DNA of 64,000 nucleotides from a virus (Duplodnaviria > Caudoviricetes), in IMG/VR virus record IMGVR_UViG_3300030090_004128, positions 66 through 64,065 of that record; one strand, 5' to 3'. The notes under the pieces are model-generated. The model saw nothing but the letters and a program-made list of their open reading frames with translations. It did not search any database and was not told the DNA's origin. Shown here in pieces: positions 17,118 to 34,600 of the stretch (its first letter is position 1; every line of letters starts with the position of its first letter). A program made the position numbers and the translations under genes.

Positions 17118-17121
17118 AACT

Positions 17122-17725: not shown

Positions 17726-17870
17726 GATATGGATATAATTATAAAATTAACAATGGTTTTTATAGTCTTGTATTTATGTATTTTTATAACTATATTTAGT
17801 TTTGTGGTTATATTGTCATTCTATACTCAATTAATACTACCTATAATAAAACTAATTAAAAGAATATAAC

Positions 17871-18200
17871 ATGGATAGTATAACTTTTAGAAAAGCTCAT
17901 GATCTTAAATTCTCTATTGAGAAGGTGGGTAAAAAATCAAACTCATGTCAAGATTATGTTATTGAAAAAAAACTACAAAAGATAGTTAAGAATAGCATGA
18001 ATGATAAAGACACTATAAACTCACTAATGGGTAAAAAGGGCTTTGGAAATACAGAGAAATCTGTTATTGAAAATATAAAAATAGTTATTCAAGATAAAAT
18101 TACATCATTAAATGGCGAGGAGATTAAATACTATATTGAAAAATTACAGAATGTTCCTGTTTCGAGTTGTATTAAGCAAATTAGAAAAAAATACTCATAA
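17871..18200 (+). CDS. Hypothetical protein
   Basis: ORF track. Confidence 0.6.
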   Translation: MDSITFRKAHDLKFSIEKVGKKSNSCQDYVIEKKLQKIVKNSMNDKDTINSLMGKKGFGNTEKSVIENIKIVIQDKITSLNGEEIKYYIEKLQNVPVSSCIKQIRKKYS

Positions 18201-18207
18201 TTTAGAT

Positions 18208-18408
18208 ATGTTAGTAAATCATACTGAAGAAGATGATCTATATAAATACATATTTGAGGACAACAGGGATATAAAAAAGGTAATACCGAGAGGTTGCACT
18301 AAAGAATTTATGGAAGTCCTACAGCATTTGCTGTATCATTATGAAGAAGATCAAGAATATGAAAAATGTCAGAAGATTTGCGACTTTATAGATCAATGGG
18401 AAATGTAA
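18208..18408 (+). CDS. Hypothetical protein with UVR-like motif (start revised to ATG 18208)
   Basis: HYEEDQEYEKCQKI. Confidence 0.55.
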   Translation: MLVNHTEEDDLYKYIFEDNRDIKKVIPRGCTKEFMEVLQHLLYHYEEDQEYEKCQKICDFIDQWEM

Positions 18409-18455
18409 TGTCAACTGGCCTTGCGAATTATTTTGAAAAAAACTTTCAATAATAG

Positions 18456-18486
18456 TAGGATAAATGAAACTTATTTACTATATTGC
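18456..18486 (+). promoter_or_regulatory. Promoter for the replication/recombination operon
   Basis: TAGGA...TATATTGC; shares TTTACTATATTGCA with P3. Confidence 0.6.
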
Positions 18487-18513
18487 AATTAAATTAACTT
18501 AAATTAAATTAAA

Positions 18514-19023
18514 ATGACGAAACTTAAAACAATAAATATTAAAGGAAAGAAGTATGTAGAAGTAAACGAAAGACTTAAATACTTTAGATCAAACTACCCT
18601 AATCATTCATTAACAAGTAGGATAACACATATTGACTCAGAGATGGTTGTTGTACAATCGGATATACTTGATCCTGAAGGTAGGATTTTAGCTAGTGGGC
18701 ATGCACATGAAGAAAAGTCTGCTAGCTTTATTAATAAAACAAGCTATGTAGAAAACTGTGAAACATCATCATGGGGTAGAGCATTGGCTAATTTTGGAAT
18801 AGGTATTGATGAGTCTGTAGCTTCAGCTAACGAAGTAGATATAGCTATTAAAAAACAAAACACAAAACCCAAAAAAGCTAAAATGACTATAAACACGTAT
18901 CAAGCTATGATGAAGGCTATTAAAGAAGGAAAGGGGGATTTTGTAAAGCAACATATGGATAAATACGATATATCTAAAGAGCAAGAAGAAGGTCTTAATA
19001 AAGCTATTAACGAAACAGCATAA
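18514..19023 (+). CDS. Rad52/Sak-like single-strand annealing recombinase
   Basis: KGKKYVEVNERL...SGHAHE...SFINKTSYVENCETSSWGRAL signature. Confidence 0.75.
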   Translation: MTKLKTINIKGKKYVEVNERLKYFRSNYPNHSLTSRITHIDSEMVVVQSDILDPEGRILASGHAHEEKSASFINKTSYVENCETSSWGRALANFGIGIDESVASANEVDIAIKKQNTKPKKAKMTINTYQAMMKAIKEGKGDFVKQHMDKYDISKEQEEGLNKAINETA

Positions 19024-19028
19024 TAATT

Positions 19029-19802
19029 ATGGATGAAATAATAAAAAAGTTTGCCTCTGATGAGGTATACTACAGCGACTATTCATTTGTGACTAACTCG
19101 CAATTAGGTTTAATTAAACGGAGCCCAGCTACCTATCAACATTACAGGGATAATCCCAGTGATCGACCTATAACTAAAGCACTTAATTTTGGTAAAGCAT
19201 TTCATATGTGTATGCTTGAGCATGATAAGTACAAAAAGGAAGTTGTGGTTGAACCTGATGTAAATAAAAGAACTAAAGCGGGGAAGGAAGAATATCAAAA
19301 GTTTTTAACCCTACATGAGGGTATGACAATACTATCTAATGATGAGGATCAATCTTTAGTGGGTATGAGAAAGAGGTTGACATCTTCTGTTGAAGCTATG
19401 GAATTATTATCTGGTGGTGTAGCTGAACAAGTCAACATTTGGAATGATCCTGACACTAAAACCCCATGTAAGGGTAAGGCTGATTATTGGAATAAAGATA
19501 GGAATATTCTTGTAGATATAAAAACGACTCAAGACTCTAGCCCTGAAGGGTTTAGAAAGTCAGCATATAAATATGGATATGACAGGCAGGCCTCTTTTTA
19601 TTTAGATGGATTTGGAGTAGAGCAATTTTGGTTCATAGTTATAGAAAAGTCAGCTCCATATAATATGGCTATCTATAATTGTAGTGAGGAATTTTTAGAA
19701 GAGGGTAGAGCTAAATATAAACATTTATTAGATATACATGACTATTACTTTATACAGGAGCTTTTTGATCCATATGAACATGTATATACAGGAACATTAT
19801 AA
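19029..19802 (+). CDS. RecE/exonuclease VIII-like PD-(D/E)XK nuclease (DUF3799-like)
   Basis: FGKAFH, KRTKAGKEEY, CKGKAD, VDIKTT, YGYDRQASFY. Confidence 0.85.
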   Translation: MDEIIKKFASDEVYYSDYSFVTNSQLGLIKRSPATYQHYRDNPSDRPITKALNFGKAFHMCMLEHDKYKKEVVVEPDVNKRTKAGKEEYQKFLTLHEGMTILSNDEDQSLVGMRKRLTSSVEAMELLSGGVAEQVNIWNDPDTKTPCKGKADYWNKDRNILVDIKTTQDSSPEGFRKSAYKYGYDRQASFYLDGFGVEQFWFIVIEKSAPYNMAIYNCSEEFLEEGRAKYKHLLDIHDYYFIQELFDPYEHVYTGTL

Positions 19803-19813
19803 AATTAAAAACT

Positions 19814-20020
19814 ATGAGTAAATTATTTAAAACATTAAAACAAAGTAAGATAACAAAGAATAAGGTTGGGGATATAACTGGATTGTCTATACCTACCGTC
19901 AGAAAGTATTTAAAAAACCCTGACCTATTCTCTGTTGGAGATGGAAAAAACATTATAAAACACTTAAAATCAAAAAACTATGAGTACACTTTTGGAGAAT
20001 TATTTAACACTGAAGAATAG
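19814..20020 (+). CDS. Small HTH DNA-binding protein
   Basis: TKNKVGDITGLSIPTVRKYLKNP helix-turn-helix. Confidence 0.7.
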   Translation: MSKLFKTLKQSKITKNKVGDITGLSIPTVRKYLKNPDLFSVGDGKNIIKHLKSKNYEYTFGELFNTEE

Positions 20021-20435
20021 CTTTAGGGATAGATCATTTAGCAACACACTTCTTTTAATAAGTGAAACATTTAAAGTTAAGCCCAACCAGATAATGGCCA
20101 GTGGCGGTAGAAAAAGAAGATTTGTGCAACCTAGAAATGTGTTGTGTTATATGATGTATACTAAGTTGGACTATAGGCTAGAGGAAATAGCTGAAAGGGT
20201 AGGTTATCGTAATCACACTTCTGTAATGCATGCACTTAATATGCATAGTGTTGACCTTAAGTGGGATGAAAACTATAAAGAAAAATATCAAATTGTTGTG
20301 GATGATTTAAAAATAGATGATCCGCATGAAACTGGTGTTGACTTCGGAAATACCGAAGGAACTCTAAAGTCTTTTCACTATAAACTATTAACAATAGAGA
20401 GTAGAATGGAGGCTTTAGAAAAATTTATTAACTAA
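19980..20435 (+). CDS. DnaA C-terminal (domain IV)-like HTH protein
   Basis: RKRRFVQPRNVLCYMM...LEEIAERVGYRNHTSVMHA matches the DnaA R-DHTTV HTH. Confidence 0.8.
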   Translation: MSTLLENYLTLKNSFRDRSFSNTLLLISETFKVKPNQIMASGGRKRRFVQPRNVLCYMMYTKLDYRLEEIAERVGYRNHTSVMHALNMHSVDLKWDENYKEKYQIVVDDLKIDDPHETGVDFGNTEGTLKSFHYKLLTIESRMEALEKFIN

Positions 20436-20450
20436 TTAATTATTTATAAA

Positions 20451-20720
20451 ATGGAGAAATCTGAAAACATTTACTGCGGAAGCGGTACAGAGAAGGTCTT
20501 CGATGAAGGAAGATCACTCGTAAACTTTTCATTAGATCTAGCTAAATTGAAAGATCACGTGTATGAGTATAACGGGAAAAAGTATGTCAACCTTACTATG
20601 GGTGCCAATAGAGATGGTGCTAATGAGTATGGTAAAACACACTATGTTAAAATAAATACGTTTAAACCTGAACCTCAAAATAACTCTACGGAGAAGAAAG
20701 AGGAAGCTTTACCGTTTTAA
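20451..20720 (+). CDS. Probable ssDNA-binding protein
   Basis: NGKKYVNL...EYGKTHYV; acidic C-terminus ending LPF. Confidence 0.65.
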   Translation: MEKSENIYCGSGTEKVFDEGRSLVNFSLDLAKLKDHVYEYNGKKYVNLTMGANRDGANEYGKTHYVKINTFKPEPQNNSTEKKEEALPF

Positions 20721-20732
20721 TTTAACACTTAT

Positions 20733-20760
20733 GGAGAGGTTGACGGGGGTTGGCCTCTCT
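20733..20760 (+). terminator. GC-rich hairpin (terminator/processing site)
   Basis: GGAGAGGTTGAC-GGGG-GTTGGCCTCTCT with G-U pairs on +. Confidence 0.5.
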
Positions 20761-20777
20761 ATATAAAAAACTAAACT

Positions 20778-21275
20778 ATGTATCTAAAAATATCTGAACA
20801 CACATCTATTGATAGTAATTCTGTTGCGGGATTTTCTTGCGAAGGAAGAGTCTTATATATAATAAGAAAAAATCACGATAAACCTTTAGATATTATATAT
20901 GATACAGAAGAAGAATGTAGCAGGATATTTCAAAACCTAAATAAACATTTTAAAAGTAAGGACTTGATGATAGTGAAATCAAGTGTAGAAAAAACAGAGG
21001 ATAGAGAAATAAAGATAGCTATGTTTAAAGCATTTTGGAACTTATATGATAAGAAAACAGGAATGCAGAGGTGTCAGGATAAGTTTTTAAAATACAATAT
21101 GAGCACAATGCAGATAATCTTAGAGTCTGTGCCATCATATATAAAAGAAACTCCTGATCCAAAATTTAGAAAGAACCCACTTACTTGGCTGAATGGAGAG
21201 TATTGGAAGGATGAGAAAGTAAAGGAAGAAGAGAAAAAGAAACAAGAATTTAATGTAAACGACTTATTTAAATGA
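20778..21275 (+). CDS. Replication initiator / helicase-loader-like protein
   Basis: FKAFWNLYDKK...FRKNPLTWLNGEYWKDE motif; upstream of primase-helicase. Confidence 0.6.
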   Translation: MYLKISEHTSIDSNSVAGFSCEGRVLYIIRKNHDKPLDIIYDTEEECSRIFQNLNKHFKSKDLMIVKSSVEKTEDREIKIAMFKAFWNLYDKKTGMQRCQDKFLKYNMSTMQIILESVPSYIKETPDPKFRKNPLTWLNGEYWKDEKVKEEEKKKQEFNVNDLFK

Positions 21276-23023
21276 GCCTAAATAATGATAGAATACAGAT
21301 TAATAAAACACAAGGTGAGGTAAGATGTGTATGTCGAAATTGTTCTACAGATCGTAAAAAGTCTAAAGAAAAATGTCTAGCTATAAATGGAGAGACTGGA
21401 GCATATATATGTCATCATTGTGGAGATAGTGGAATTATTAATCAATATAAAACATACACTAAAGAGAAAATAGAATACTCTAGACCTAAAATGACAAACT
21501 CAACTGACTTGTCAGATGAAATGGTTGACTGGTTTAGAACTAGGGGAATATCTCAAAAGGTGTTAAATAAAAATAAAGTATCACAAAAAAAAGAATATAT
21601 GCCACAAGTTTCTGCAAATAGAAATGTAATATGCTTTAATTATTTTAGAGATGGAGAGCTTGTGAACGTAAAATACAGAGATGGAGAAAAGAATTTCAAG
21701 CAATTTAAGGATGCGGAAAAGATATTTTATGGATTAGATGATATAAAGGATCATAGCGATGTGTATATAGTTGAAGGAGAAATGGATAAACTTTCTTTAG
21801 ATGAAATAGGAATAAGTAATTGTGTTTCTGTTCCTGATGGAGCTCCTAATCCAGGTACTAAAAATTACGATAATAAATTCTCATATCTAGATAATTGCTG
21901 GGAGTATTTTGAGGATAAAGAAAGAATATATATATGTTCAGATAATGATACTAATGGTAGGGTTTTATTGGAAGAATTAAGTAGAAGGATAGGTAGAGAG
22001 AGATGTTATGTGGTAAAATTTCCAAGTAATATAAAAGACGCTAACCAAATGTTAGTAGATGAAGGTGTGTTCGCCTTAGAAAAAATACTAAAAGAAGCTG
22101 AGCCATATCCAGTTGATGGTGTTTTTACTGTTAAATCAGAAGAAGATTATATGATAGATGTTTTTAATAATGGTAAAAAGAAAGGATTAACTACAGGATA
22201 TCAAGTTTTAGATAATCACTATACCCTCAGAACTTCAGAGTTAGATGTGTGGACAGGTATTCCAGGCTCAGGTAAGACAATGATGGCGTTTCAAATAATG
22301 CTTAATTCATCTGTTTTATATGGGTGGAAATGGGGGATATTTTCCCCAGAAAACTACCCAGTGGGAGACCTGTTCGACACTCTAGCTGAAATGTATATAG
22401 GAAACACATCAGATGTGGATGTTAATGATAGAATGTCTATACATGAATATCATGAAGCTATTGAGTTTCTAAATAAACATTTCTTTGCTATATATCCTGA
22501 AGATGATTTCAGTCTTGATAACATATTATCTAAGTTTAAACACTTAGTGTTAAGGCATGGAATAAAGGGTTGTTTACTAGATCCTTTCAATCAATTAGAT
22601 CATAAGTTTGGAGGTAAAGATGAAACAACATATATAGGGGAGTGCTTAACTCATATACGTAGATTTGAACAGGTTAATGATCTTAAATTTATAATAATAG
22701 CACACCCTAGAAAAATGGATAGAGATGATCAGGGCGGGTATAAAAAACCTACAGCGTATGATATTAGTGGTAGTCAAAATTGGTTTAATAAAGCGGATAA
22801 TGTTATCTGTATACACAGAGATGATGCTATGGATATAAACAATACTTCAGTAGCTTTTAGTGTTCAGAAGGTTAAGTTTCAGAAATTAGTAGGGGTTCCA
22901 GGAGAAGAATCTTTAAAATATGATAGAAGATCTGGAAGGTATCTGGACTACCATATGAACTGCCCTTTAGATACAGTAAGTCAGACTCATAGTCTGTGGA
23001 GACAAAATAATGATTTTTATTGA
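21272..23023 (+). CDS. Primase-helicase (T7 gp4/Twinkle-like)
   Basis: Zn finger (CRNC...CHHC), TOPRIM (VEGEMD, DNDTNG), Walker A GIPGSGKT, IAHPRK, ISGSQNWFNKADN. Confidence 0.93.
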   Translation: MSLNNDRIQINKTQGEVRCVCRNCSTDRKKSKEKCLAINGETGAYICHHCGDSGIINQYKTYTKEKIEYSRPKMTNSTDLSDEMVDWFRTRGISQKVLNKNKVSQKKEYMPQVSANRNVICFNYFRDGELVNVKYRDGEKNFKQFKDAEKIFYGLDDIKDHSDVYIVEGEMDKLSLDEIGISNCVSVPDGAPNPGTKNYDNKFSYLDNCWEYFEDKERIYICSDNDTNGRVLLEELSRRIGRERCYVVKFPSNIKDANQMLVDEGVFALEKILKEAEPYPVDGVFTVKSEEDYMIDVFNNGKKKGLTTGYQVLDNHYTLRTSELDVWTGIPGSGKTMMAFQIMLNSSVLYGWKWGIFSPENYPVGDLFDTLAEMYIGNTSDVDVNDRMSIHEYHEAIEFLNKHFFAIYPEDDFSLDNILSKFKHLVLRHGIKGCLLDPFNQLDHKFGGKDETTYIGECLTHIRRFEQVNDLKFIIIAHPRKMDRDDQGGYKKPTAYDISGSQNWFNKADNVICIHRDDAMDINNTSVAFSVQKVKFQKLVGVPGEESLKYDRRSGRYLDYHMNCPLDTVSQTHSLWRQNNDFY

Positions 23024-23295
23024 TGAGAAAACAGATATATGTATTAACTATTGAATGTTCCTATCGAAATATTAATGTAAATAAATTAGGTAGAAGGGTG
23101 CCAAGTAAAAATAAAAACTATATAACTATTGATAATGTTTTTACAGAAAATACTATTGAAGGGTTGCAAGGTTGTGAAAGATCTATGAATAAAATAAAAT
23201 TTGAAATAAGAAAGAAGAATAAAAAAGATATTGAAATAACAATAGATAGAATTTTAGACTCATTACCAGTTGGTATGAGTAATGATATATATTAA
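23020..23295 (+). CDS. Hypothetical protein
   Basis: ORF track. Confidence 0.6.
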   Translation: MMRKQIYVLTIECSYRNINVNKLGRRVPSKNKNYITIDNVFTENTIEGLQGCERSMNKIKFEIRKKNKKDIEITIDRILDSLPVGMSNDIY

Positions 23296-23310
23296 CCAAA
23301 ATTATTAATT

Positions 23311-23730
23311 ATGAAGAGGATATTTTTTATTGCGTTTATACTGACGGGTCAGTTATTCGCACAAATTGAAAGCGGATTATATTATTCTGAGGATATTTAT
23401 AAATCTGATGTGGAGAATAACAAAAGGTATAACACTATTAAGATGGAAACATCTATGTATTTAGATATAGATGAAATAGGAATAAGGATGTATCTACCAA
23501 ATAATGTAGGACTTTACCATGGATGGAAAGATATAGGTTTTTTTACAGATTATTACACTTATCTTTTAACCAACAACACTAAGATTTGTGTAGGTCCAGA
23601 AATAAATGGAATATATTATTTTTATGAAACTGAATATGATCATCTAGAGTATAAAAAGTTAATAGAATTTAGAGATCTTATTAGAGTATCTGATTTACAT
23701 GGAAATGGTAATTACCTAATGGAGAGATAA
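23311..23730 (+). CDS. Secreted hypothetical protein
   Basis: Sec signal peptide MKRIFFIAFILTGQLFA|Q (Bacteroidota Q-rule). Confidence 0.65.
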   Translation: MKRIFFIAFILTGQLFAQIESGLYYSEDIYKSDVENNKRYNTIKMETSMYLDIDEIGIRMYLPNNVGLYHGWKDIGFFTDYYTYLLTNNTKICVGPEINGIYYFYETEYDHLEYKKLIEFRDLIRVSDLHGNGNYLMER

Positions 23731-24263
23731 TGAGAAGAAAAAAAAGAAATAAAAAAGTAAGGAATGCCACAGCCACCACATTTAATGGTGTTAAATTTAA
23801 ATCAAAGTTAGAGAAGTTTACATACCAATGCCTTAAGGTGGCTGGCATACCTTTTAAGTATGAGGAAGATAGATTTGTATTGATAGATAAGTTTAAATAT
23901 GAAGGCGAATGTATTGAGAAGAAAAAGAAGAAGGGGAAGAGTGTTTTTATAAAGTCTTCTGAGAATATATCGCAAGCAACATACCTGCCCGACTTCACTA
24001 ACCTTGAGCAAGGATGGATCATAGAATGTAAAGGTTTAAGGACGGAGGCTTTTAATTTGAGATGGAAATTATTCAAGAACATGCTTGCAAAAGAGAAAAA
24101 AAGTTACGATCTTTACATGCCAGGGACACAGAAGCAGATAATGGAGGTTATTGAAAAGCTTAAATTAAAAAACAATGATTTCAAAGGAAGACAAAGAAAG
24201 GTTGAACAAAAAAATAAGAAGAGAGTCCCAGTTGGAAGCAGAAAAAAACGGAATGGATATTAG
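23730..24263 (+). CDS. T7 endonuclease I-like Holliday junction resolvase
   Basis: FKSKLE...FKYE...YLPDF...IIECKG. Confidence 0.8.
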   Translation: MRRKKRNKKVRNATATTFNGVKFKSKLEKFTYQCLKVAGIPFKYEEDRFVLIDKFKYEGECIEKKKKKGKSVFIKSSENISQATYLPDFTNLEQGWIIECKGLRTEAFNLRWKLFKNMLAKEKKSYDLYMPGTQKQIMEVIEKLKLKNNDFKGRQRKVEQKNKKRVPVGSRKKRNGY

Positions 24264-24336
24264 ATCTAAACCGTATAGGAATAAGAAGAAATATACAAGA
24301 AAAGAAAAACACAGTGATTCTAGGAGACATATTTAA
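24175..24336 (+). CDS. ArfA-like basic peptide, 53 aa (not in ORF track)
   Basis: MISKEDKERLNKKIRRESQLEAEKNGMDIRSKPYRNKKKYTRKEKHSDSRRHI. Confidence 0.55.
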   Translation: MISKEDKERLNKKIRRESQLEAEKNGMDIRSKPYRNKKKYTRKEKHSDSRRHI

Positions 24337-24700
24337 AAGCTTAATAGGTAATGCATCAACTATAATAGATGAGGTAGTTACAACAAAAGAGGAGAAGCTA
24401 TCTTTAAAGTTAAGAATGAAAGAGCTTATAGCTAAATCTCAAATGAATGCTCAAGAGCAGGTCACTAGAAGATGGGAGGCTGATGCTAAAGCAGGATGGT
24501 TGCCAGCTAATATTAGGCCTTTAACTCTAGCTTTTTTAACTATTATGCTAGTAGTCATGTCGTTCTTTGATGGTAATGTGGGTGAGTTTAAAATGAATCC
24601 AATGTATGGCCCAATTTATACCCAACTCCTACTTGTAGTATACTCAGCATACTTCGCTGGTAGATCAATCGAGAAAATTAAAAATAATAAAAATAAATAA
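24314..24700 (+). CDS. Holin (3TM/GTA-holin-like)
   Basis: RWEAD...WLPANIRP...YFAGRSIEK with TM helices. Confidence 0.75.
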   Translation: MILGDIFKSLIGNASTIIDEVVTTKEEKLSLKLRMKELIAKSQMNAQEQVTRRWEADAKAGWLPANIRPLTLAFLTIMLVVMSFFDGNVGEFKMNPMYGPIYTQLLLVVYSAYFAGRSIEKIKNNKNK

Positions 24701-24701
24701 A

Positions 24702-24992
24702 ATGGAAGCAAAAAAATTAGAAGAAAAAGAAATTAAAGAAATTAAAGAAATAGCTAGTGAAAAAAATCAAATAACAGTTGATCTTGGTAAACTTAAAACT
24801 GACATGATTTTAATGGAGGCTCAAATGAAAGAATATGAAAAAATGGAAGAAGATATGGTAGCTAAATTTAAAGGAAACCAAACTAAAGGAAAGAAGTTAA
24901 TGGATAAAATGAATAAGAAATACGGTTCTGGTACTATCAATATTGATCAAGGTGTATTTACTCCAAATACTAAAGAGAATGGGGAAGGCTAA
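24702..24992 (+). CDS. Coiled-coil hypothetical protein
   Basis: KYGSGTINIDQGVF C-terminal motif. Confidence 0.7.
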   Translation: MEAKKLEEKEIKEIKEIASEKNQITVDLGKLKTDMILMEAQMKEYEKMEEDMVAKFKGNQTKGKKLMDKMNKKYGSGTINIDQGVFTPNTKENGEG

Positions 24993-25125
24993 TGCCAAAA
25001 GGAAAGCTTGGAGAGAGAAATTGACTCTACTTAATATTCTTCGTAAACGAATGAAGAGAACTAAATCTGAGTCTAAATCTATGGAGATCCAAAATAAAAT
25101 AAGCTCAATAAAGTCTAAGTTATAA
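24979..25125 (+). CDS. Small basic protein
   Basis: MGKANAKRKAWREKL... Confidence 0.5.
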   Translation: MGKANAKRKAWREKLTLLNILRKRMKRTKSESKSMEIQNKISSIKSKL

Positions 25126-25199
25126 AACAATAAACCCATCGGAGAGATGGGCTTATCGAAAACTTAAAACTAAAACTATGTAAACACGAATGTTAACAC
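25122..25199 (-). ncRNA. Candidate trans-acting antisense sRNA against early-gene translation starts
   Basis: Promoter-like CTTG-21bp-TATATTGA; core CAUAGUUUUAGUUUUAAGUUUU; hairpin UAAGCCCAUC-UCUCC-GAUGGGUUUA followed by UUGUUUU. Confidence 0.6.
25124..25155 (-). terminator. Rho-independent terminator
   Basis: 10-bp stem whose G-U pair works only on the minus strand, plus a U-rich tail. Confidence 0.7.
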
Positions 25200-25254
25200 A
25201 GATTCAATATACAAATATTTATTGGTTTTTCACAAGTTTGTGGTAAAAAAATTA

Positions 25255-25752
25255 TTAACAACTGATTGGTGAGGAGTGTGAATCAAAATCTATATATGTT
25301 ATTGTGACATCTTCGTCACATTCAATAGCCTTCATTATATATTCATACACTCTCTTATAAGCTTGTGTAGATCTACCTATAAAACCGTCCTTCTTGATTT
25401 GATTGTTTTCCTGTGAGTCCCCAACAAGTAGACACCCAGCTGTGTGTTCATCAGTATTGCCACAATGAATGAGAATATAATCAAAGCCAGGAACATTAGT
25501 GACATGAAGCATACCACGATGCATTTTACCAAACTTCTTAGAGTATCTAGAATGAAACCCACCAACATCTCTAATTTTAATTTCATAAGTTCCTGCTGGT
25601 ATACGAGTTTCACCCCTAACCTTTTCACTTCTTTTTTCATCCTCTAAGGTATAACATAAGAATCTCTTTCCATCTAACTTATTGCTAGCGTCAAATAGAA
25701 TCCCATTTGTAGAATCGGACTCACTAGAAAATCTTAATACCTCAAGTTCCAT
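25255..25752 (-). CDS. DUF5675 family protein, putative endolysin/L,D-transpeptidase-like
   Basis: CYTLED...ETRIPAGTY...ILIHCGNTDEHTAGCLLVG; converges on the holin. Confidence 0.75.
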   Translation of the reverse strand: MELEVLRFSSESDSTNGILFDASNKLDGKRFLCYTLEDEKRSEKVRGETRIPAGTYEIKIRDVGGFHSRYSKKFGKMHRGMLHVTNVPGFDYILIHCGNTDEHTAGCLLVGDSQENNQIKKDGFIGRSTQAYKRVYEYIMKAIECDEDVTITYIDFDSHSSPISC

Positions 25753-26166
25753 TTACGCAGATATAAACATCATATACTCTACAGTCATGCTTGTTGCTAC
25801 GCTTGGTGTATATACAATGTCATTATTGTCATCGTGAGCACTCCAAGGCATAAACATCCAGTCTCCAGCGTATAGTCTACCCATCTCTTCACCATTGATA
25901 GTAACAGTAATATATTCTGATCTAGTTGTAGAACAGTTTTTAAGATACACTTTATGAGCTTTATTTTGACCATAAGTTGTAGCTGGAGTTGCATTAAACA
26001 AAGTAACAGCATCAGTTGCTGTAGTTGTTTTTCTACCTATACCTGTTGTTTGTGAAATACCAGTTGATGTACCAGTATCATACAGAGTAGCTGTTGTTGT
26101 TAAGCTTAAAGCATCTGACGTTAAGTCGCTAGAGGATAACGTAATTTGTGCAGTTGTTGTCGCCAT
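25753..26166 (-). CDS. Putative structural protein
   Basis: MATTTAQITLSSSDL, Thr-rich; RLYAGDWMFMPW. Confidence 0.6.
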   Translation of the reverse strand: MATTTAQITLSSSDLTSDALSLTTTATLYDTGTSTGISQTTGIGRKTTTATDAVTLFNATPATTYGQNKAHKVYLKNCSTTRSEYITVTINGEEMGRLYAGDWMFMPWSAHDDNNDIVYTPSVATSMTVEYMMFISA

Positions 26167-26215
26167 TTATTTTTATTTTAAATTGTTAACTAATTTTTTA
26201 CCAAATATAATCATT

Positions 26216-26398
26216 TTATATCTCAAAACCAAAGTTCAAGATCATAAATCTAAATCTTTTACAACTACCTTTTTTGTTTTCACAATACAAGCAGGGGCAA
26301 AACATTAATTCAAATATAGTAAGTGTACTTATTCTGAATGTTAATTCGTATCTATCTTTTTTATTTCCTGAAGTCCAGGAATTAATCCAGTTAATCAT
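26216..26398 (-). CDS. Small hypothetical protein
   Basis: MINWINSW...RFMILNFGFEI. Confidence 0.55.
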   Translation of the reverse strand: MINWINSWTSGNKKDRYELTFRISTLTIFELMFCPCLYCENKKGSCKRFRFMILNFGFEI

Positions 26399-26421
26399 AT
26401 TTTTTATTTTTTTTATTATTA

Positions 26422-26838
26422 TTAATCTCCAAAGGGAACATCCTCATTCAAATCAGATGAGTCTTCTTCCACTTTTTTCTTTACCTTCTTTCCACCGTTA
26501 TATTCAACAGCGTGACCTTCACTAACTAATGTCTCATTAACATTAATTGGTAGATCCATATTGTCAGGATATACAGTTAAAACACCTAAGACTCTACCGT
26601 ATTTGCCAACCTCCTTACTTTCAACAACCAAACTACCTTTGTCAAGAATTTCAGTTAACCTGTATTTAGCGGCTAACCCTCGTTTCTTTTCTTCTAAATC
26701 TCTAGTTCTAGATTCTGGAGTATCTATCCCAGCTAGCCTAACTCTTTTGTGAACGCTAATATCAAAGCCTAAATTTATATTAACATCTACAGTGTCTCCA
26801 TCGACTACCCTGTCTAATTTCGCTTTATAAGTATACAT
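26422..26838 (-). CDS. Thermonuclease (SNase-like)
   Basis: RVVDGDT, RVRLAGIDTPE, GKYGRVLG. Confidence 0.9.
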   Translation of the reverse strand: MYTYKAKLDRVVDGDTVDVNINLGFDISVHKRVRLAGIDTPESRTRDLEEKKRGLAAKYRLTEILDKGSLVVESKEVGKYGRVLGVLTVYPDNMDLPINVNETLVSEGHAVEYNGGKKVKKKVEEDSSDLNEDVPFGD

Positions 26839-26839
26839 A

Positions 26840-27232
26840 TTAATTGAATTTTGCGATCATGATTTGATCAATGCTTTTTTGCACTTCTTTTTTATCAGCT
26901 TCAAGTTCAAACATTATATTAGCTTTAAATCTTTCTTTCTCCTCTCCACTCTCAAATATAATAACAGTAGGTATGCAAGTTACTTCATACTTAGCTTGAA
27001 GATTAGGATATTCAGCTATATCAATTCTATACTTTGAGCAGTCATTTAAATTTGAAAGATCAACAAATTCATTAGACGAGTTCCATTCAACCCAAAATTC
27101 TACAGCCACTATATCTTTAGCTATTTTCTGATTGAAATTATCTTCATTAATAAACTCTTGTCCTGTAACTTTAGATCCTATAACAAGGATTAATATAAAT
27201 GCTATTAATAATTTTAAGTCTAAATATTTCAT
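26840..27232 (-). CDS. Secreted thioredoxin-fold protein lacking CxxC
   Basis: Signal peptide; VEFWVEWNSSN in place of WCxxC; IPTVIIF...GEEKERF. Confidence 0.7.
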   Translation of the reverse strand: MKYLDLKLLIAFILILVIGSKVTGQEFINEDNFNQKIAKDIVAVEFWVEWNSSNEFVDLSNLNDCSKYRIDIAEYPNLQAKYEVTCIPTVIIFESGEEKERFKANIMFELEADKKEVQKSIDQIMIAKFN

Positions 27233-27233
27233 A

Positions 27234-27515
27234 TTATTTCATATTATCCATCTTCTCCCTAAGATATTTGATATCATCTTTTATCTCTTTTACATCCTCC
27301 TCTGTTTTTAAAATTGAAGCTCTTATATATTCATCTTTCATTTTGAACTCCATTTGAGTAACCTCTGGTTTTGGGGGCTCAGGAAGTAATTTAGCTTCAT
27401 CAATATCAGCCTGTAAAGTGAACCACATACCAACTAATGTGGCTATTAAAAAAGCTATTCCACCCATTGTTTTTAGGCTTACTTCAAATTTAGAATCTTC
27501 TGATATTTCTTTCAT
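27234..27515 (-). CDS. Membrane-anchored coiled-coil protein
   Basis: One TM helix followed by heptads. Confidence 0.65.
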   Translation of the reverse strand: MKEISEDSKFEVSLKTMGGIAFLIATLVGMWFTLQADIDEAKLLPEPPKPEVTQMEFKMKDEYIRASILKTEEDVKEIKDDIKYLREKMDNMK

Positions 27516-27517
27516 AA

Positions 27518-27925
27518 TTATTTCTTTTTTTTGTTAACTCTACATTTCCATTTTCTAAGTGCTAAAGCTTTTCTTGTTGGCTTACCTTTACTATCCTTCA
27601 TTGGTCCCTTCATTCCACCCATTCTAGCACAAAAAGACTTACGTCTCTTAGCGTCTTTACTACCCTTTTTAACCTTCCCAGTTACAGGAGCCTTTAGCTT
27701 ACTACCAGGGTTTTCTCTTTTATAAGAGTCCCTACCTTTTTTATTTAATCCTCCTGTAGGATTTTTACCTTCTTTTCTTGTCCAAGCTGCTGTTTTAGCT
27801 CCCTTTTTAGCTTTAGGAAAACCAGCTTTCATGTCAGCATAAGACTCATCACTTATAGTAGAATCTTTTTTAGACCTACTTGTCCCAGCTTTTTTTCTTT
27901 TATTTATGTTAGCATACAAACTCAC
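27518..27925 (-). CDS. Basic DUF6321-like protein, possibly DNA-condensing core protein
   Basis: SLYANIN, EGKNPTGGLN, RRKSFCARM, ALRKWKC. Confidence 0.7.
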   Translation of the reverse strand: MSLYANINKRKKAGTSRSKKDSTISDESYADMKAGFPKAKKGAKTAAWTRKEGKNPTGGLNKKGRDSYKRENPGSKLKAPVTGKVKKGSKDAKRRKSFCARMGGMKGPMKDSKGKPTRKALALRKWKCRVNKKKK

Positions 27926-28134
27926 TTCTTAGCGAATTTTTCTACACCACTAATACCAAAACAACCAAGGACAACCCATACAAACGAATCGTAAACAAAC
28001 TCATTTATAACTAGATCATAACCATACCAGCCCGTCATTAGATCAGCGACCATTATTATACACATTATTAAGAAAGCTATAAAACCGATTATAGCCTTTT
28101 CATTCCAATTATTATCGTCTTTAAATATATTCAT
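27922..28134 (-). CDS. Small 2-TM membrane protein (holin-like)
   Basis: NEKAIIGF...LGCFGISGVEKF. Confidence 0.6.
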   Translation of the reverse strand: MNIFKDDNNWNEKAIIGFIAFLIMCIIMVADLMTGWYGYDLVINEFVYDSFVWVVLGCFGISGVEKFAKK

Positions 28135-29051
28135 TATTCTTTCATTTGTCTAACTCCTCCAAAACTTTCTTTTAAAACGTTCATTATCTCATCCTTACTC
28201 ATATTTTGCATAAAAGCAGGTAATTTACCTTTTCCTTCTTCCTCATTATTTTTTGCTCCTTCAGCATTTTCTAGACTAGGTAGAACAGTTTCGTTCTGGC
28301 CAGCCATAATATATTTAATATAAGGTCTAAGATATTTTTGACTATGATACATTTGATCCATATCTTCACCAGCGTCCATCATTTCATAAACTGTTATTAA
28401 AAAAGGAACATGTTCTTCAGAGGCACCATACGTTGGAGGCGGTTTGTCACCTAGCCATTTTTCTCCATCAGGTCTTTCAGTAGTTAGATTTTTTGTTGGA
28501 TTACCAGCTTCTTCAGTGCTTTCTCCCTTCATCATCTCAATTTCTTCAGGCGTTACGCCAAGCTCTCTCTGCATGTAATCGTCTACAGCGTCATTACGAA
28601 ATCTTTCTTCCCAATGCATTTCCTCCTTAGATTCTTCATCAAATTCAGGCTTACCTCCATCCTGCATAAATTGCATTTTTGCCCCATCACGTGCATCAAA
28701 AGGTCTAAATGTTTTTGTGTTAATCCTTCTCTGACCATCGTTATCCTCTCCAAAAAAATGAAGGTGATATTCATTGTTTAATATCTCACTTTTAGGAGCG
28801 TTCTTTTTATAAGACCCATCTTCTATAGCTGCATTAGCTTCTTCTAAACTGTTATATATATGTCCTGTATATGTTTTTTTAGATGGAACATTACCCGTTT
28901 CTTTACCTCCTTCTTGATAAGTTCTTAATGGAGTGTCTCCCTTATTACCCATTAAAGGGGTTAATGGTTGAGGACTTGGGAAAACCATAGATTGATTACC
29001 CATTCTTTTTTTATTAATTCCTCCTCCTTGATATTTTTTGTTTATTTTCAT
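28134..29051 (-). CDS. Probable internal virion protein
   Basis: Repeated YQGGG, YQEGG, ARDGA and MQDGG motifs. Confidence 0.55.
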   Translation of the reverse strand: MKINKKYQGGGINKKRMGNQSMVFPSPQPLTPLMGNKGDTPLRTYQEGGKETGNVPSKKTYTGHIYNSLEEANAAIEDGSYKKNAPKSEILNNEYHLHFFGEDNDGQRRINTKTFRPFDARDGAKMQFMQDGGKPEFDEESKEEMHWEERFRNDAVDDYMQRELGVTPEEIEMMKGESTEEAGNPTKNLTTERPDGEKWLGDKPPPTYGASEEHVPFLITVYEMMDAGEDMDQMYHSQKYLRPYIKYIMAGQNETVLPSLENAEGAKNNEEEGKGKLPAFMQNMSKDEIMNVLKESFGGVRQMKE

Positions 29052-29863
29052 TTCAATAAGTATTTTATTTTACCACCCTCTATATATATTCCTTCTGGCT
29101 TTCTTATAACTCTACCAGTTAAATCATATAAAAGTCCAGTATCAATAGATTTATCTAATATTTCTTCCATCCCAGAATTGCAAGGCATTCCTGTATCACA
29201 ATCTACATATTCTGTATTTATTACTTCAACATATTCTACAACAGTATCAACAACAACTATCTCTACATATTCAGTCTCTACAACTGTGTCTATCACTATC
29301 ACTTCTACGTATTCAATAACATCTACATACATAGTGTCTAAAGCTCCATCCATCCATAACGTGTCTGTTACATATATATATTCAGGAACCATAACCTCAA
29401 CCTCAAATGTATCTACAACAATCTGAGTTATATATTCTGTTTGTATTATTGTGTCTAATTGTATTATAGTTTCATAGATATAAAAAGGAACTTCAACCTC
29501 TACTGTATCAGTTATATATTCTGTTTCAATAATTGTGTCTGTTTCATATATATATTCATATTCTACTACAGGTATCTCTACATACACTGTATCACATTCC
29601 TCTACAGGAGGAGCACAGTCTTCTAATGTTGTTGGAACAGCACCGTTTTCATCACTGGCATCGACACAATCTTCCCATTCGTCATTTATCCAAGAGTTTT
29701 GAACACAACCCATTGGAGCATACTGAGTCCAATTAGCTGGATCGTCACCACAATAATAACCACCTGCATTAGCACAATCTATACATAATTGTTGAAAATC
29801 ATAACCTTGAGCATTAACAAACGAACAACTCAAAGTAAATAATATTATTAATAATTTTTTCAT
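29048..29863 (-). CDS. Secreted protein with LDL-receptor class A-like motif, VDT/EY repeats and T9SS-CTD-like tail
   Basis: Signal peptide ...VNA|Q; CVQNSWINDEWEDCVDASDE; LYDLTGRVIRKPEGIYIEGGKIKY. Confidence 0.65.
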   Translation of the reverse strand: MKKLLIILFTLSCSFVNAQGYDFQQLCIDCANAGGYYCGDDPANWTQYAPMGCVQNSWINDEWEDCVDASDENGAVPTTLEDCAPPVEECDTVYVEIPVVEYEYIYETDTIIETEYITDTVEVEVPFYIYETIIQLDTIIQTEYITQIVVDTFEVEVMVPEYIYVTDTLWMDGALDTMYVDVIEYVEVIVIDTVVETEYVEIVVVDTVVEYVEVINTEYVDCDTGMPCNSGMEEILDKSIDTGLLYDLTGRVIRKPEGIYIEGGKIKYLLK

Positions 29864-29870
29864 ATCTATT

Positions 29871-30578
29871 TTATTTATCGTAACTAAAATATTTCACTTG
29901 AAAATCGGAACTTTGTTCTCCAACTTTATCTAATCCTTTTTCTGTTAAATGATTATTTATAACAACCATTTGTGGTTTATCCATTTCTTTTAAAACCTCT
30001 TTGTTTTTAATTGTTCTAACAAGTCTTCCATCATAATACATTTCAATTACATCTTTTCTCCAGTTGCATCCATATTTTATAAAATGCTTTCTAGGATCTT
30101 TAAACATCATTCCAGCACGTGCAGGAAGATTAGTTTTAGTCCCCTCTGAAGTATTACCGTAGTGTATGCAAGACTCCACTTTATTGTAGGCTAATGGATT
30201 ATGTATATTAAAATGTAAGTAATCTTGTCTATTACCAGTATAACCCTCAAAAATATCTATCTCTGGGGGCCAAGGTGATCCATACATCCAAAATGCTGGC
30301 CACAAAGCATATCCCGTAGGCAGCTTAGCTTCTATCTCAAAATATCCAAAATGAAATTTCTTAATAGATGATATAAGTCCCACACCATAATTAGATTTAT
30401 AATTTACACCATTATGTTTAATTGTTGCTGGGTTAAATCGTGTCTTTAAGTGAATTACACCTTCTCCATCAATTTCAACAGCAGACTCATCATAATAATT
30501 CCAAGATTTATCAGGGTGTATTTTACCCCAAGGTTCTTGACATCTCCATTTAAAACCTGACCAATTCAGTTTTTTCAT
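29871..30578 (-). CDS. Glycoside hydrolase family 16
   Basis: GYFEIEAKLP, LWPAFW, catalytic EIDIFE. Confidence 0.9.
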   Translation of the reverse strand: MKKLNWSGFKWRCQEPWGKIHPDKSWNYYDESAVEIDGEGVIHLKTRFNPATIKHNGVNYKSNYGVGLISSIKKFHFGYFEIEAKLPTGYALWPAFWMYGSPWPPEIDIFEGYTGNRQDYLHFNIHNPLAYNKVESCIHYGNTSEGTKTNLPARAGMMFKDPRKHFIKYGCNWRKDVIEMYYDGRLVRTIKNKEVLKEMDKPQMVVINNHLTEKGLDKVGEQSSDFQVKYFSYDK

Positions 30579-30580: not shown

Positions 30581-31629
30581 TTAAAAGAACAAATAATTAA
30601 ACCCAAACTTCACTTCATACACTGGTTTCATCCAGTATCTCATATGGGTTCCCTCTACAAACATACCTAAATGTTTTGTTATACGAGATCCAAATACCAT
30701 ACCTGCATCCCATTCTATATTATCCCATTCCTCTCTTCCATACTCAAATGAATACTCATCCATTCCATAGTGAAAAGGCATACAATTAGCCCATATATGT
30801 AGCCAAAATTTAGGGGTATATTTATAATATGCTATTCCAACAACAGCACTTAATTCTTTTTGCATTCCAAGCTTTTCAAGCTCTCTTTCATTGTATCTTT
30901 CTACTGCGTCTCCGAAGTAGTGGTTGAAGAACTCATCATTCGAGGTAGCAACTAAAACGGAGTCTCCACCACTAACATCGTACCAGTTTTGATTTACGTA
31001 AAAACCTTGAACCCATTGTTCTGGAGCAAACCCAAAGTCTTGAGCCAACTGTTGAAAAGTAGACTCGCCAGGTATCCAGAAATCTTCTATAGGGGTTACA
31101 CCATAAACTGGATGCATACGAAAGACTCCACCTATTGTGAAGTCCCAATTTCCTTTATTAATTCTAAATCTTGTATCAAATGAGTTATATCTTAAATTAA
31201 CTCTCTGATTATCTTTATATTGAACTTTTGTCACGCATCTATTTCCAAGGTATCTAAGCCAGAAATTTTGCTCAGTATATTTATCCCCACGATTACGTAT
31301 AAATGAATAATTAAGTAAATACTCCCAACCAACGCTATTACCAATAGTAACATTGTCTGCAACAGCTTTTTCAGTGCCATAATACCATGTTTTAACTTTG
31401 TATTCATAATCAAATCTTGCTATTTTACGCAAGCCTATAGTTAAATTATAATCATATGGATGGACTCAATAGCAATATAATCACCTCTCTCAACAAAAGG
31501 GGTGTTCATTGTCATTGAAGTATAAAAAGTTGAATATTTAAAAAAGTCTCCTTGACTAAAAGCAGTGGATATTCCAAACACCACTATCATCATTATTATA
31601 TAAAGTATTTTACTTATGTCCTTTTTCAT
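30581..31629 (-). pseudogene. Frameshifted outer-membrane beta-barrel protein (split into 31441-31629 and 30581-31432)
   Basis: Signal peptide in the upstream piece; the downstream frame is open from 31465 (VHPYDYNLTIGLRKIARF...) and ends in the BAM-type YEVKFGFNYLFF. Confidence 0.7.
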
Positions 31630-31666
31630 TTTGTAAATATAGTTATTTTTTTAATTACTACCTCTA

Positions 31667-34600
31667 TTACTGTGTTTTTTTATCATCTTCTCTCGCCCAT
31701 ACCGTCATCATATATTGAACTTGAGGATCTGTCACTATACCCTCTTCTACAAATAAATCTTCTAAAGTTTGGTATCTAATCGGATTACCTACAGCCTCTT
31801 TTTGAGCTTCATAAACTATAAACGCTGCTGTCATCTTTTTACCCTGCTTAAAATCTATAACAGCTTGTTGAATATCAGATTCGTATTCCCCAAAATTCCA
31901 ATCCATAAAAATTTTTCTAGCTATTCTGAGATCTACCTGATCCCTATTCCATAATTTTTGATCTATCACTGGATCATTACCAAGCCTACCTTCAATCTGT
32001 CTATGAGTTTCAGCTATAACTTCTTGAGCTAACAAATAATAATCATCTCTAGCATCATTACCAAAACGCAATTTTTTACCATTTTTATCTACCATAGCAC
32101 CTGAGTTAGGATCTCTTCTTAAAGCAAATCTTTCAGATGCCGCCTTATAAGCTAAATTTAGGTTAGCTTGGAACCTCTCCTCTGTTTCTCTTATGTGGTC
32201 AGCTTCAGCTTGTAATTGTGTTTTTTGATTTCTAAGAAGATCAATTTCTCCAATATATCTTTTTGTTACTGGACCAAAAGCGTCATTTAAAAACACATTC
32301 ATTTGATTACCGTACTTCTCTTTTTCATACTCATTTAAACCTCCAGTGGCAGCCACATAACTATGATTAACTACAGCGTTCCATGGACTCCTATCCATAT
32401 TAGTAAGCATAGAGCCTATTGCTGACTTTATAGTTGTAACACCGAAACCTCCTTCTTTTAAACCCATTTTATCAAATCTCTTAGATAAATCCATTAACCA
32501 CCTATCTTCATATTTATCATAATCACCCTCATATTGAGTATATCCGTTAGCTGCCTCATTGTAATCATTCCATACAGGTCTATTGTAAAAAGCATCATAG
32601 TTACCTAAAACTTTTAAAGATACATTTAAAAGAGGGTTTGTTGATATTAGATCCCTAGGGTTACCACCACCAGCTGGTATAGCTTTCTGTAGTATTCTAC
32701 CGTAAGAATTTTTCTCATCACCTCTACCCCAAGGAGTATATGATGAAAAATCTTTAGACTGAATAAAGTAATCACTACCTGTTATGTGTTTAAATGCTAA
32801 CTCTTCCAAAGGTAATCTAAAAACATTTAATCTAGCATCACTAGGTATCTTTAAATATCTAGGAGTCACAATTCTATTGTCAGACAACTGATTTTTTATT
32901 TCAGCTATCCTTTCATCTCTTTCTTCTCCAATCTGCATGCTTTCAGCTATTTTTAATTGCTCTTGTAGAGCCACTTCCTTTTCTTGACTAACTATATCTG
33001 TAACTTTACCAGGTAATATTACACAGTGGTAATTTTCTCGATCATAAGGGCTAATATGATTTATATAGTATCTTCTATTTTTATATAGTTTTTCTCTTAT
33101 CTTTTTCTCTAATTCCCTATTTCCACTTGCTACAGCCTTATCTAAAGCATCTTGTAATCTTTTTTCTTCATCTTCGTCTAAAATATCAAAATGCTGTAAA
33201 TTATAAGCCATTAAACCAAGACCAAAAACTGAAGCCCACTGTGCTGTATCCCAAAGAAATTGCTTAGGGTTTTCACTAACATACCTAACACTCTTATCAA
33301 ACACTTGTGCCGCAGCATTAAGGTAAGCAAAGCCTAAAGAATCAAGAAATTTAATCGTTCTACCTCCATTATTAAAGTTAGCATAGTCAACTGCATTAGC
33401 TACAGCTCTTTTTTTAATAGCTATAAGGTCTTCTCCTGTGGGTTCTTGCCCATCATTTTTCTCTTTATATTCTTGTGTGTATTTTTTAATCCACCTTCTA
33501 GTATTAGCAAGTCTACCTGTCATTTCAGAAGTTGAGTTCATCTTCGCAAAAAAGTTTTTTATAGCGTTTTTATACACCTTTACGGTATTAGGATTTACAT
33601 AAGGAGCGTCATCACCATACAACTTAGACATTTGTTCTCTAGCTGCCTTTTCTCTAGCACGCTCTTCATTGAGAGTGTTTTCAGGGTCTGACATTATCTC
33701 CCTTGCTCTTTTTGTTAACGCCACTTCGTCTATAGCTAAATCAGATGAATAATCCATTAATCCATATCTAGTTAAAAACTCTAAAGATCCCCCAAGCATT
33801 TTGTATTCTTGACTAAGAGGTCCATTTGTTCCCGCATCCCAAAGTACAGCGGCCCAGTCAGTAAACGCCATCCCAAATTTAGCACCTAAACCTAGGAAGG
33901 GTACAGGATTGGTGGCCATACCATTATAAGTATCTGTAAACATAACTTGCTGAGCGAAATCATAAAATACATTAGCAACAAAGAAAAATGGTGCACCAAC
34001 ACCAGTAGCGAATACTTTAAGTGCACTACCACTCCACCTCAAAGGTTTAGTAATTAATTTAAGTTTATCACCAGCAGGAACCATTTCTCTAGGGTGAGCA
34101 AATAAACTTTGGTAAGCTGCATTTTTCATAGCAAATCTAACCTTTTTACCACCTTCATTGTAGCTCATTTCAACGTATCCAGGTTTTACTTTTTCCCCAT
34201 CTTTTAATATATACCCTATATCTTCTATTGTCATTTGAAGACCATTAACATACTCAAATCCTTTTTTAGTTACTTCAGATATTATATTATATATACCTTT
34301 TCTAACTTCATTCTCGGCTCTTAATTTAGCTCCTGTAGCTAGCGTGTTCTGCAATAACTTAACTGGATCCATGTATAAAACACTATCACTACCTTGCTTT
34401 AACATTTTTAAAGGAGACTCTAAATGATCGCCCCTATCTGAACGACCTGATTTTCTTTGCTCATTTAAATTTCTCTCTGCAAATATTACATAGTCAACAA
34501 ATTTTCTTGGATTATATTTAAAGTTTTTAAGCTCATTGTAAGTTGCTTCATCTATTAATCCTGCTTCAAAATTTCTTTTTAACTCATTACTATATTCTTG

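Follow-up and report, generated by a model that had tools for sequence, protein, structure and literature searches.

Between the convergent operons of the phage genome studied here lies a genuine, conserved unit, for which a small RNA (sRNA) gene is the best interpretation. The unit lies in a 64,000-nucleotide (nt) stretch of virus DNA (Duplodnaviria; Caudoviricetes; IMG/VR record IMGVR_UViG_3300030090_004128, positions 66 to 64,065), hereafter the window, in which a gap of 129 nt (25126-25254) is bounded by the stop codon of the plus-strand operon (25125) and that of the minus-strand operon (25255). On the minus strand, the gap reads as a promoter, a body that mirrors the start regions of the phage's own early genes and an intrinsic terminator. 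A discrete minus-strand RNA is likely to exist; the full proposal, in which this sRNA represses the early genes in trans at their starts, is held tentatively, at somewhat below an even chance. The anatomy and strand of the unit, its conservation and the specificity of its complementarity can be read from the DNA itself.

The gap holds the following minus-strand features:
25232-25235, minus strand: -33-like element CTTG, its TTG 21 nt upstream of the -7 box (sequence motif).
25204-25211, minus strand: -7-like promoter box TATATTGA of the Bacteroidota TAnnTTTG type (motif; a box at the same position in relatives).
25176-25201, minus strand: predicted 5' hairpin of the RNA, including the CAU that mirrors the start codon (fold; pair changes in relatives).
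25159-25180, minus strand: anti-start core CAUAGUUUUAGUUUUAAGUUUU, of which 25159-25175 is predicted to be unpaired (complementarity and fold).
25128-25158, minus strand: intrinsic terminator hairpin of 13 pairs, two of them G-U (terminator scan and fold).
25122-25127, minus strand: U tract TTTTAT after the terminator (sequence).

In minus-strand order, CTTG, 21 nt, TATATTGA, a 45-nt body with CATAGTTTTAGTTTTAAGTTTT, the 13-pair hairpin and TTTTAT follow one another. This bears out the initial annotation, which had described the gap as a stand-alone minus-strand unit of promoter, anti-start body and terminator, and the layout is conserved across many diverged relatives. The primary-sigma promoter of Bacteroidota consists of a -33 TTTG and a -7 TAnnTTTG element with about 19-21 nt between them. 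The window's box agrees with six of the eight consensus positions, at a spacing of CTTG-N21; the motif is also seen upstream of the phage's own genes, canonical TAnnTTTG boxes preceding genes on both strands of the window. The resemblance drawn earlier to the TATATTGC variant at 15952 and 18479 also holds, these two copies lying 29 and 27 nt upstream of gene starts.

With five of its 13 pairs G-C, a loop of 5 nt and the tail TTTTAT, the hairpin scores as an intrinsic terminator on the minus strand only; the terminator scan as a whole was not enriched, giving 6 sites against 4.3 expected in 10 kb. The plus-strand side of the hairpin is A-rich and has no U tract. Because two of the stem pairs are G-U, leaving the long stem to the minus-strand RNA, and because the T tract stands on that side only, the hairpin is a predicted terminator of the minus strand and not of the plus strand, as had been argued from its G-U pairing. 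Folding of the RNA 25203-25122 with RNAfold gave -25.2 kcal/mol (z -7.56, with 0 of 200 shuffles as good) and a structure composed of a small 5' hairpin that takes in CAUAG, 17 open U-rich nt (25175-25159) and the terminator; the plus strand of the same gap folds weakly (z -2.47). The core had been described as unstructured, which stands for the 17 open nt and fails for the CAUAG end.

The body of the predicted RNA is directed at the following plus-strand features:
11146-20435, plus strand: block of 27 small early genes with a common start-region motif (start-motif matches, open reading frame (ORF) map and duplex energies).
15975-15991, plus strand: best predicted target, the start region of gene 15989-16354 (17-nt exact complement).
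13565-13579, plus strand: predicted target, the start region of gene 13577-13873 (15-nt exact match).

The body sequence CATAGTTTTAGTTTTAA is the exact complement of 15975-15991, and its plus-strand copy has other exact matches of 14 nt at 13124-13137, 13 nt at 16784-16796 and 12 nt at 24789-24800, in agreement with the claim that the core is the reverse complement of the early initiation region, with exact matches of 17, 15, 14 and 13 nt. The sequence AAAACUAUG is itself start-region sequence of early genes. The shorter motif AAAACTATG has 16 matches in the window, all on the plus strand (shuffles: mean 1.85, maximum 6, 0 of 100 reaching 16), and 13 of these lie between 11513 and 19982 at early gene starts; it was recovered at all nine ORF starts for which the initial annotation had listed it. 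When up to three mismatches are allowed, the 17-mer has 10 matches against 1.31 expected. The late, minus-strand genes have start contexts other than the early motif, so that the earlier statement on the late genes then checked is upheld in the ORF map.

Conservation was followed from the two genes that flank the unit:
25255-25752, minus strand: DUF5675 gene, the last of the late operon, whose 3' untranslated region (UTR) is also the unit (Pfam PF18925, E 3e-28).
24979-25125, plus strand: gene of 48 amino acids (aa), the last of the plus-strand operon, ending 2 nt before the hairpin (ORF map; the 48-aa ORF is kept in relatives L077, L058 and L054).

A search of IMG/VR with the DUF5675 protein returned 331 related stretches, of which the best 80 were kept. 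The unit layout was present 3' of DUF5675 in 29 of these 80 loci, 25 by terminator scan (with two matches, L011 and L038, left out as false) and four group D loci, with long loops, by eye; in the remaining 51 another gene directly follows DUF5675, and the genome architectures differ. Two further protein anchors were used, a 96-aa gene and the helicase. Of the helicase-anchored loci, 37 of 79 have a match judged real, adding groups J to N, in a scan that demanded both box and CAT and is biased to that extent; many of the other loci end before the junction. Exactly one -7-like box was found in 24 of 25 distinct copies, compared with an expectation per 90 nt of 0.076 genome-wide and 0.24 in intergenic DNA, and 17 of 24 copies also have a TTG at a distance of 17-23 nt upstream of that box (background 0.11-0.13). 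The relatives' box at this position is TATATTTG, TATCTTTG or TATATTTA; since L004 and L069 have the canonical TATATTTG there, the homology of the window's box to the canonical one is supported.

In groups A, B, E and F the box lies 41-46 nt past the stop codon and the terminator at 94-102 nt, with differing sequence between them. The core (25128-25222) is 95.8% identical to that of L077, against 66.9% for DUF5675 and 61.2% for the 48-aa gene. In group A, the sequence varies in columns adjoining the box, in the loop of the terminator and in the tail; the anti-start seed and the stems are invariant except in L001. Between groups the terminator stems vary with their pairing kept (e.g., CCCATC/GATGGG to CCCACC/GGTGGG), and one-sided changes in the 5' hairpin keep pairs through G-U. 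For the mirror itself, a weight matrix was built from 95 early start regions of three genomes and applied to the opposite strand of the unit; in 23 of 25 distinct copies the mirror is kept, scoring as early starts do, with at most 23 of 1000 shuffles as good. Two substitutions, CAT to TAT in L001 and CATAG to CATGG in group B, keep pairing via G-U only in a minus-strand RNA, and such wobble-compatible changes lend weak support to that strand. Read on the plus strand, the mirrored ATG (25178) is followed directly by TAA, and this ATG-TAA is found in six of seven distinct group A copies; elsewhere the frame after the mirrored ATG is 3, 6, 8, 9 or 11 aa, or open-ended. No plus-strand peptide is conserved across the copies, L001 being without the ATG, in line with the earlier view that this is not a gene.

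Groups A, B, E, J, K and L have the unit where the two operons converge. The next genes after it in groups C and D are HNH-like and on the same strand, which places it away from the junction there; an interpretation of the group C and D unit as the 5' leader of a downstream gene was rejected, the following genes being HNH-like inserts that are absent from this place in the window. Basic proteins with an H-H motif, likely HNH-type and possibly mobile, are encoded between the terminator and the convergent operon at L014:6613-7268 and L054:6607-7455, and a homologue of one of them, 69% identical, is encoded elsewhere in the window by the minus strand at 10027-10353 (region 9997-10380). Group H (L163, L165, L175) has no -7 box. 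Immediately past the stop codon of the DUF5675-like gene, its anti-start stretch is preceded by a short hairpin in which both sides of the stem have changed (GCAGTC...GACTGC versus GTAGTC...GACTAC), which suggests a form of the RNA that would be derived from the 3' UTR only.

The predicted pairing is specific for the early genes of the phage. Duplex energies between the RNA body and start regions (-30 to +15) were computed with RNAduplex, with two Flavobacteriaceae genomes as stand-ins for the host:
Phage early genes (n = 27): mean -16.0 kcal/mol; 44% at -17 or better.
Replication-block genes (n = 8): mean -12.1 kcal/mol.
Minus-strand genes (n = 40): mean -10.8 kcal/mol; 2% at -17 or better.
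Tenacibaculum stand-in starts (n = 162): mean -10.9 kcal/mol; 2% at -17 or better.
Algibacter stand-in starts (n = 64): mean -10.5 kcal/mol; 5% at -17 or better.

Early and minus-strand genes differ at p 4e-8 (Mann-Whitney), and a duplex of -12 kcal/mol or better is available at 24 of 27 early genes versus 12 of 40 minus-strand genes. The proposal that the complementarity is aimed at phage early starts is borne out by these means, and the accompanying suggestion that host mRNAs might also be hit finds no support in the two stand-in genomes. Because AAAA[CT]TATG is rare among the stand-in starts (3 of 162 and 0 of 64, in Flavobacteriaceae that are not the actual host), the predicted seed is tuned to the C-containing tag of the phage and not to A-rich starts generally. 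In groups A, B and E the genome's own seed outperformed every one of 100 shuffled seeds. Co-variation was assessed in eight related genomes from groups A (two), B, E, H, J, K and L, groups C and D being left out because contigs G004 and G006 lack the early region. When each seed was scored against each genome's early starts and the energies were double-centred, the diagonal was negative in seven of eight cases (mean -0.75 kcal/mol; permutation p 0.0002 with 20,000 permutations), and the predicted seed therefore tracks the early-start tag of its own genome.

Combined, these results point to the following mechanism, in which transcription, timing, pairing in the cell and repression are all predicted steps. 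The gap would encode a minus-strand sRNA of about 75-82 nt, transcribed from its own host-type (Bacteroidota sigma-A-like) promoter and ending at the strand-specific terminator, and the late-operon mRNA would carry the same sequence at its 3' end. The body of the sRNA, U-rich and mostly open, would together with the CAU be antisense to about -17 to +3 of an early initiation region that is A-rich and lacks a Shine-Dalgarno (SD) sequence. The most likely action is pairing in trans across the start codons of the approximately 27 small plus-strand early genes, which would prevent 30S subunits from binding and might also leave the mRNAs open to degradation; expression of the whole early class would thus fall in concert as the RNA accumulates. 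A read-through 3' UTR of DUF5675 had been named earlier as an alternative that would speak against the sRNA; this opposition does not hold, since the unit is also the 3' end of the late operon and as such a second likely source of the RNA.

Several observations weigh against this mechanism. A constitutive host-type promoter alone would not yield late timing, and the window's -7 box is non-canonical. The CAUAG end of the core is predicted to lie inside a hairpin. None of the 34 pairs in group A shows a compensatory double change, and the strand call derives from promoter and terminator motifs together with a few wobble-compatible changes. Groups G and H have no significant mirror (105 and 375 of 1000 shuffles as good), and group H is also the one without a -7 box. 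Random plus-strand windows of the early region average -11.7 kcal/mol, the own seed does no better than shuffles in G004 and G005 (15 and 14 of 100 as good), and exact AAAACTATG starts are few in G003 despite its near-identical unit (60.6 kb; 5 forward and 2 reverse matches). No close cultured relative was found by DNA in the phage collection, and a search of sequencing runs with 21000-30000 turned up no RNA run that contains this region. The complementarity restates the presence of a start-like motif on the plus strand, and the duplex and co-variation tests therefore cannot separate a minus-strand RNA from a plus-strand start or from concerted evolution of a repeat.

Among the other explanations, an ordinary 3' end is unlikely but is the most probable. 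The unit would then be only the 3' UTR and terminator of the late operon, with a promoter that is perhaps fortuitous or insulating and a plus-strand motif that is a relic start or a recombination linker of early-gene cassettes, with no role in trans. A core 96% identical between flanks of 61-67% in mosaic genomes is as expected at a recombination joint, the reiterated motif could drive exchange, the mirror is not significant in groups G and H, and sub-threshold matches to the FopS sRNA family in five Flavobacteriaceae genomes turn out to be ordinary terminator-beside-gene-start sites read backwards. However, a relic should decay, whereas the mirror with CAT is kept in about ten diverged groups whose surroundings have changed; conservation of the -7 and -33 boxes well exceeds the chance level, and the gap keeps its length and layout in a genome that is 93% coding. 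The hairpin, moreover, is not a plus-strand terminator, so a reading as terminator plus next gene start fails. It is less probable again that the RNA is real and directed mainly at host mRNAs, as a FopS-like mimic that shuts down outer-membrane or transporter genes or other A-rich starts, with the phage early match being secondary. Such targets would fit the sub-threshold FopS likeness in seed and architecture, the A-rich, SD-less start regions that PMC11697453 describes for Bacteroidota, and the 2-5% of stand-in bacterial starts that reach -17 kcal/mol; the tuning of the seed to the C-containing phage motif argues against them, as do the tracking by seeds of their own genome's early starts and the mean energies of the stand-ins, which equal those of the phage late genes (a weak test, the stand-ins not being the host).

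A role in cis at the convergent junction is improbable as the main function, and would not exclude the sRNA. The minus-strand transcript or its promoter would pair or collide with plus-strand read-through RNA, whose complementarity is complete here, trimming or stopping it before the late genes, which is consistent with a plus-strand operon that has no intrinsic terminator of its own (only 2 nt separate its final stop codon from a hairpin that, on that strand, has no U tract) and with the junction position in six groups. Such a role gives no reason for the body to mirror a start region with CAT in every group, and the unit of groups C and D lies away from the junction. Least probable of all is a functional plus-strand copy, as a start-stop, mini-ORF or decoy start at which ribosomes would load, or to which a protein repressor would bind, at the plus-strand operon RNA's 3' end. 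Most groups do keep a strong ATG start context, usually with AAA next, and the start-stop recurs within group A, but frame, length and sequence are not conserved, L001 has lost the ATG, there is no downstream plus-strand gene to regulate, and the flanking promoter and terminator face the opposite way. A protein repressor was likewise set aside, since RegA-like and other RNA-binding families are absent among the 31 plus-strand proteins (Pfam E <=0.01, PHROGs E <=0.001).

The window covers nearly all of the 64,065-bp virus record (33% G+C). Its plus-strand block (11146-25125) comprises about 27 small ORFan genes followed by replication genes, among them a PDDEXK protein and the anchor used above:
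21272-23023, plus strand: DnaB/Toprim helicase-primase, in the replication part of the block.
The minus-strand late block runs from 63839 down to 25255, converging on the plus-strand block, and encodes a portal, an SU10-type capsid protein, a crAss-muzzle-domain protein, a 3862-aa protein and an SNase, with DUF5675 at its end. Flavobacterium and Cellulophaga podophages have capsid proteins 28% identical to the one encoded here, and the host is probably a member of Bacteroidota, most plausibly a marine flavobacterium. In the search for close cultured relatives, matches to the DUF5675 protein were all below 60% identity and in unrelated phages.

Within the early block, the regions upstream of genes 11519 and 11708 (11490-11521 and 11680-11710) share the stretch TTACTAACTAATAAACTATAAAACTATG; because they are identical over at least 28 nt, this stretch is taken as the joint of a duplicated cassette. 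Additionally, GGTTTTTAGTTTG at 13446-13458 on the plus strand, just past gene 13143-13445, resembles the anti-start seed of group B. In the RNAfold prediction its partner is AACTAAAG, which lies some 90 nt further downstream, ahead of the gene 13577 start (within 13440-13556; -26.5 kcal/mol, z -2.13, 7 of 200 shuffles as good), and this pairing may represent the same principle acting in cis. Among the late genes, the 1654-aa protein (46796-51760, minus strand) has crAss muzzle N- and C-terminal domains (E 1e-11 and 1e-6), and virion parts therefore appear to be common to this phage and Crassvirales. The 3862-aa protein (31667-43255, minus strand) has a weak DUF7178 match only; a virion RNA polymerase, by analogy with phi14:2, was considered for it and rejected, with no DFDxD motif by regular expression and no Pfam RNA polymerase family. 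Because -7 boxes end 5 and 4 nt before the ATGs on the minus strand (TATATTTG at 46764-46771 and TATATTTA at 31634-31641), the late mRNAs of genes 45364-46758 and 31441-31629 would have little or no leader. No Rfam family reached its gathering score in the whole window, tRNA families included, and a hammerhead ribozyme candidate at 11861-11919 matched no hammerhead family on 11840-11945 up to E 10. Relatives carry tRNA genes at L049:5425-5498 (72 bits, group D) and L017:5053-5126 (70 bits, group C).

In a few model phages the timed shut-off of early genes is well known, and proteins carry it out. If the proposed repression is true, an RNA that targets a whole gene class, through a tag that its start regions have in common, would make a simple developmental switch of a new design, and it would be the first sRNA described for a Bacteroidota phage as far as the literature searched shows; that search found no Bacteroidota phage sRNA and no class-wide early shut-off by an sRNA. 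To our knowledge, Bacteroidota lack both SD-led initiation and Hfq, and the unit could serve as a portable off-switch for SD-less genes in this phylum. Should the unit be no more than a terminator with a relic motif, it would be an ordinary finding.

Among known RNAs, the closest to the unit is FopS (RF04319), the top Rfam match of the gap in E-value mode at 29.7 bits against a gathering cut-off of 56. The alignment spans the whole model (25187-25121, minus strand), with the seed-like stretch on model positions 1-25. FopS is also the top family for the group A copy L111 (25.9 bits), group J L150 (26.7) and group K L154 (21.7), group J having the first 11 nt of the FopS consensus in common, and the cut-off is not reached by the window unit or by any of these relatives. 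Nine of ten relatives' units had no Rfam match at E <=10, with none in groups B to I. As controls, 3 of 14 genomes were matched by the FopS model, Bacteroides thetaiotaomicron among them, and 1 of 14 above the cut-off. In five Flavobacteriaceae genomes only sub-threshold matches of 20-27 bits were found; six of these were inspected and had no -7-like box, and some are gene starts read backwards, with a terminator preceding a gene on the other strand. Since similar FopS scores arise at such ordinary gene starts, convergence on the same kind of target is plausible, and it is as likely an origin of the likeness as common descent. An exact scan of genome contigs with the 17-nt seed found no host sRNA look-alike, none of its 120 stretches (121 matches) having the order box, seed and terminator; the matches are mostly gene starts or chance. 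In five contigs from Bacteroidaceae and Prevotellaceae metagenome-assembled genomes of gut Bacteroidales (L203, L217, L247, L251, L296) the seed pattern lies within the first or last 25 nt in similar surroundings, probably as the end of a repeated mobile element unrelated to the phage.

According to PMC11697453, the FopS RNAs of B. thetaiotaomicron are a family of paralogous sRNAs of about 65-70 nt with canonical sigma-ABfr promoters, one of 14 being derived from a 3' UTR; each has a single-stranded 5' seed and a terminator, and they pair beside the susC start codon and block translation in vitro. The same text describes Bacteroides GibS and FopS as blocking translation by pairing at SD-less start regions. 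As far as that description goes, the window unit resembles FopS, at the level of motifs, in its Bacteroidota-type promoter and Rho-independent terminator, and in a U-rich seed that contains CAU and is antisense to an SD-less start region. It differs in being phage-encoded and single-copy, in the extra 5' hairpin of groups A and B and in matching the phage's own early genes, where FopS matches susC mRNAs. The FopS seed begins at the 5' end; the seed-like stretch of the window lies about 16 nt past the expected RNA start and partly in the predicted hairpin, and in groups D, J and K the stretch comes right after the box. FopS RNAs are in addition bound by RbpB. The unit is thus placed as an analogue of FopS and not as a member of the family. 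The closest phage precedent is the c4 RNA of P1 and P7, which, according to PMC12197685, prevents translation of a phage mRNA by binding around the ribosome binding site. Like the proposed RNA it is phage-encoded and acts on a phage mRNA start, but it serves one transcript (ant) in temperate enterobacterial phages, works through structured loops and provides immunity, not class-wide shut-off; the Rfam C4 family is absent from the nine matches up to E 10 on 25050-25330. The initial annotation had supposed the principle undescribed, which GibS/FopS (PMC11697453) and c4 (PMC12197685) contradict.

In its two proposed RNA sources, the unit resembles systems with a promoter at the 3' end of the upstream gene and a terminator in common with the mRNA. 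DapZ and MicL are 3'-UTR sRNAs of this kind, having their own promoter and sharing the terminator of the mRNA; they are cellular, Hfq-dependent and enterobacterial, whereas in the window both the organism and the target class are the phage's own. For the proposed job, the counterparts are RegA (a repressor) and RegB (an endonuclease) of T4, which shut down many early mRNAs via SD-type initiation sites; these are proteins, and no such family is present in the window. A broader and slightly more doubtful version of the proposal is that the early genes share an "address tag", AACUAAAACUAUG, that is rare in stand-in host genes, by which a single FopS-like phage sRNA would silence the whole class as an RNA counterpart of T4 RegA/RegB, with seed and tag drifting together across a wide family of marine Flavobacteriia podophages.

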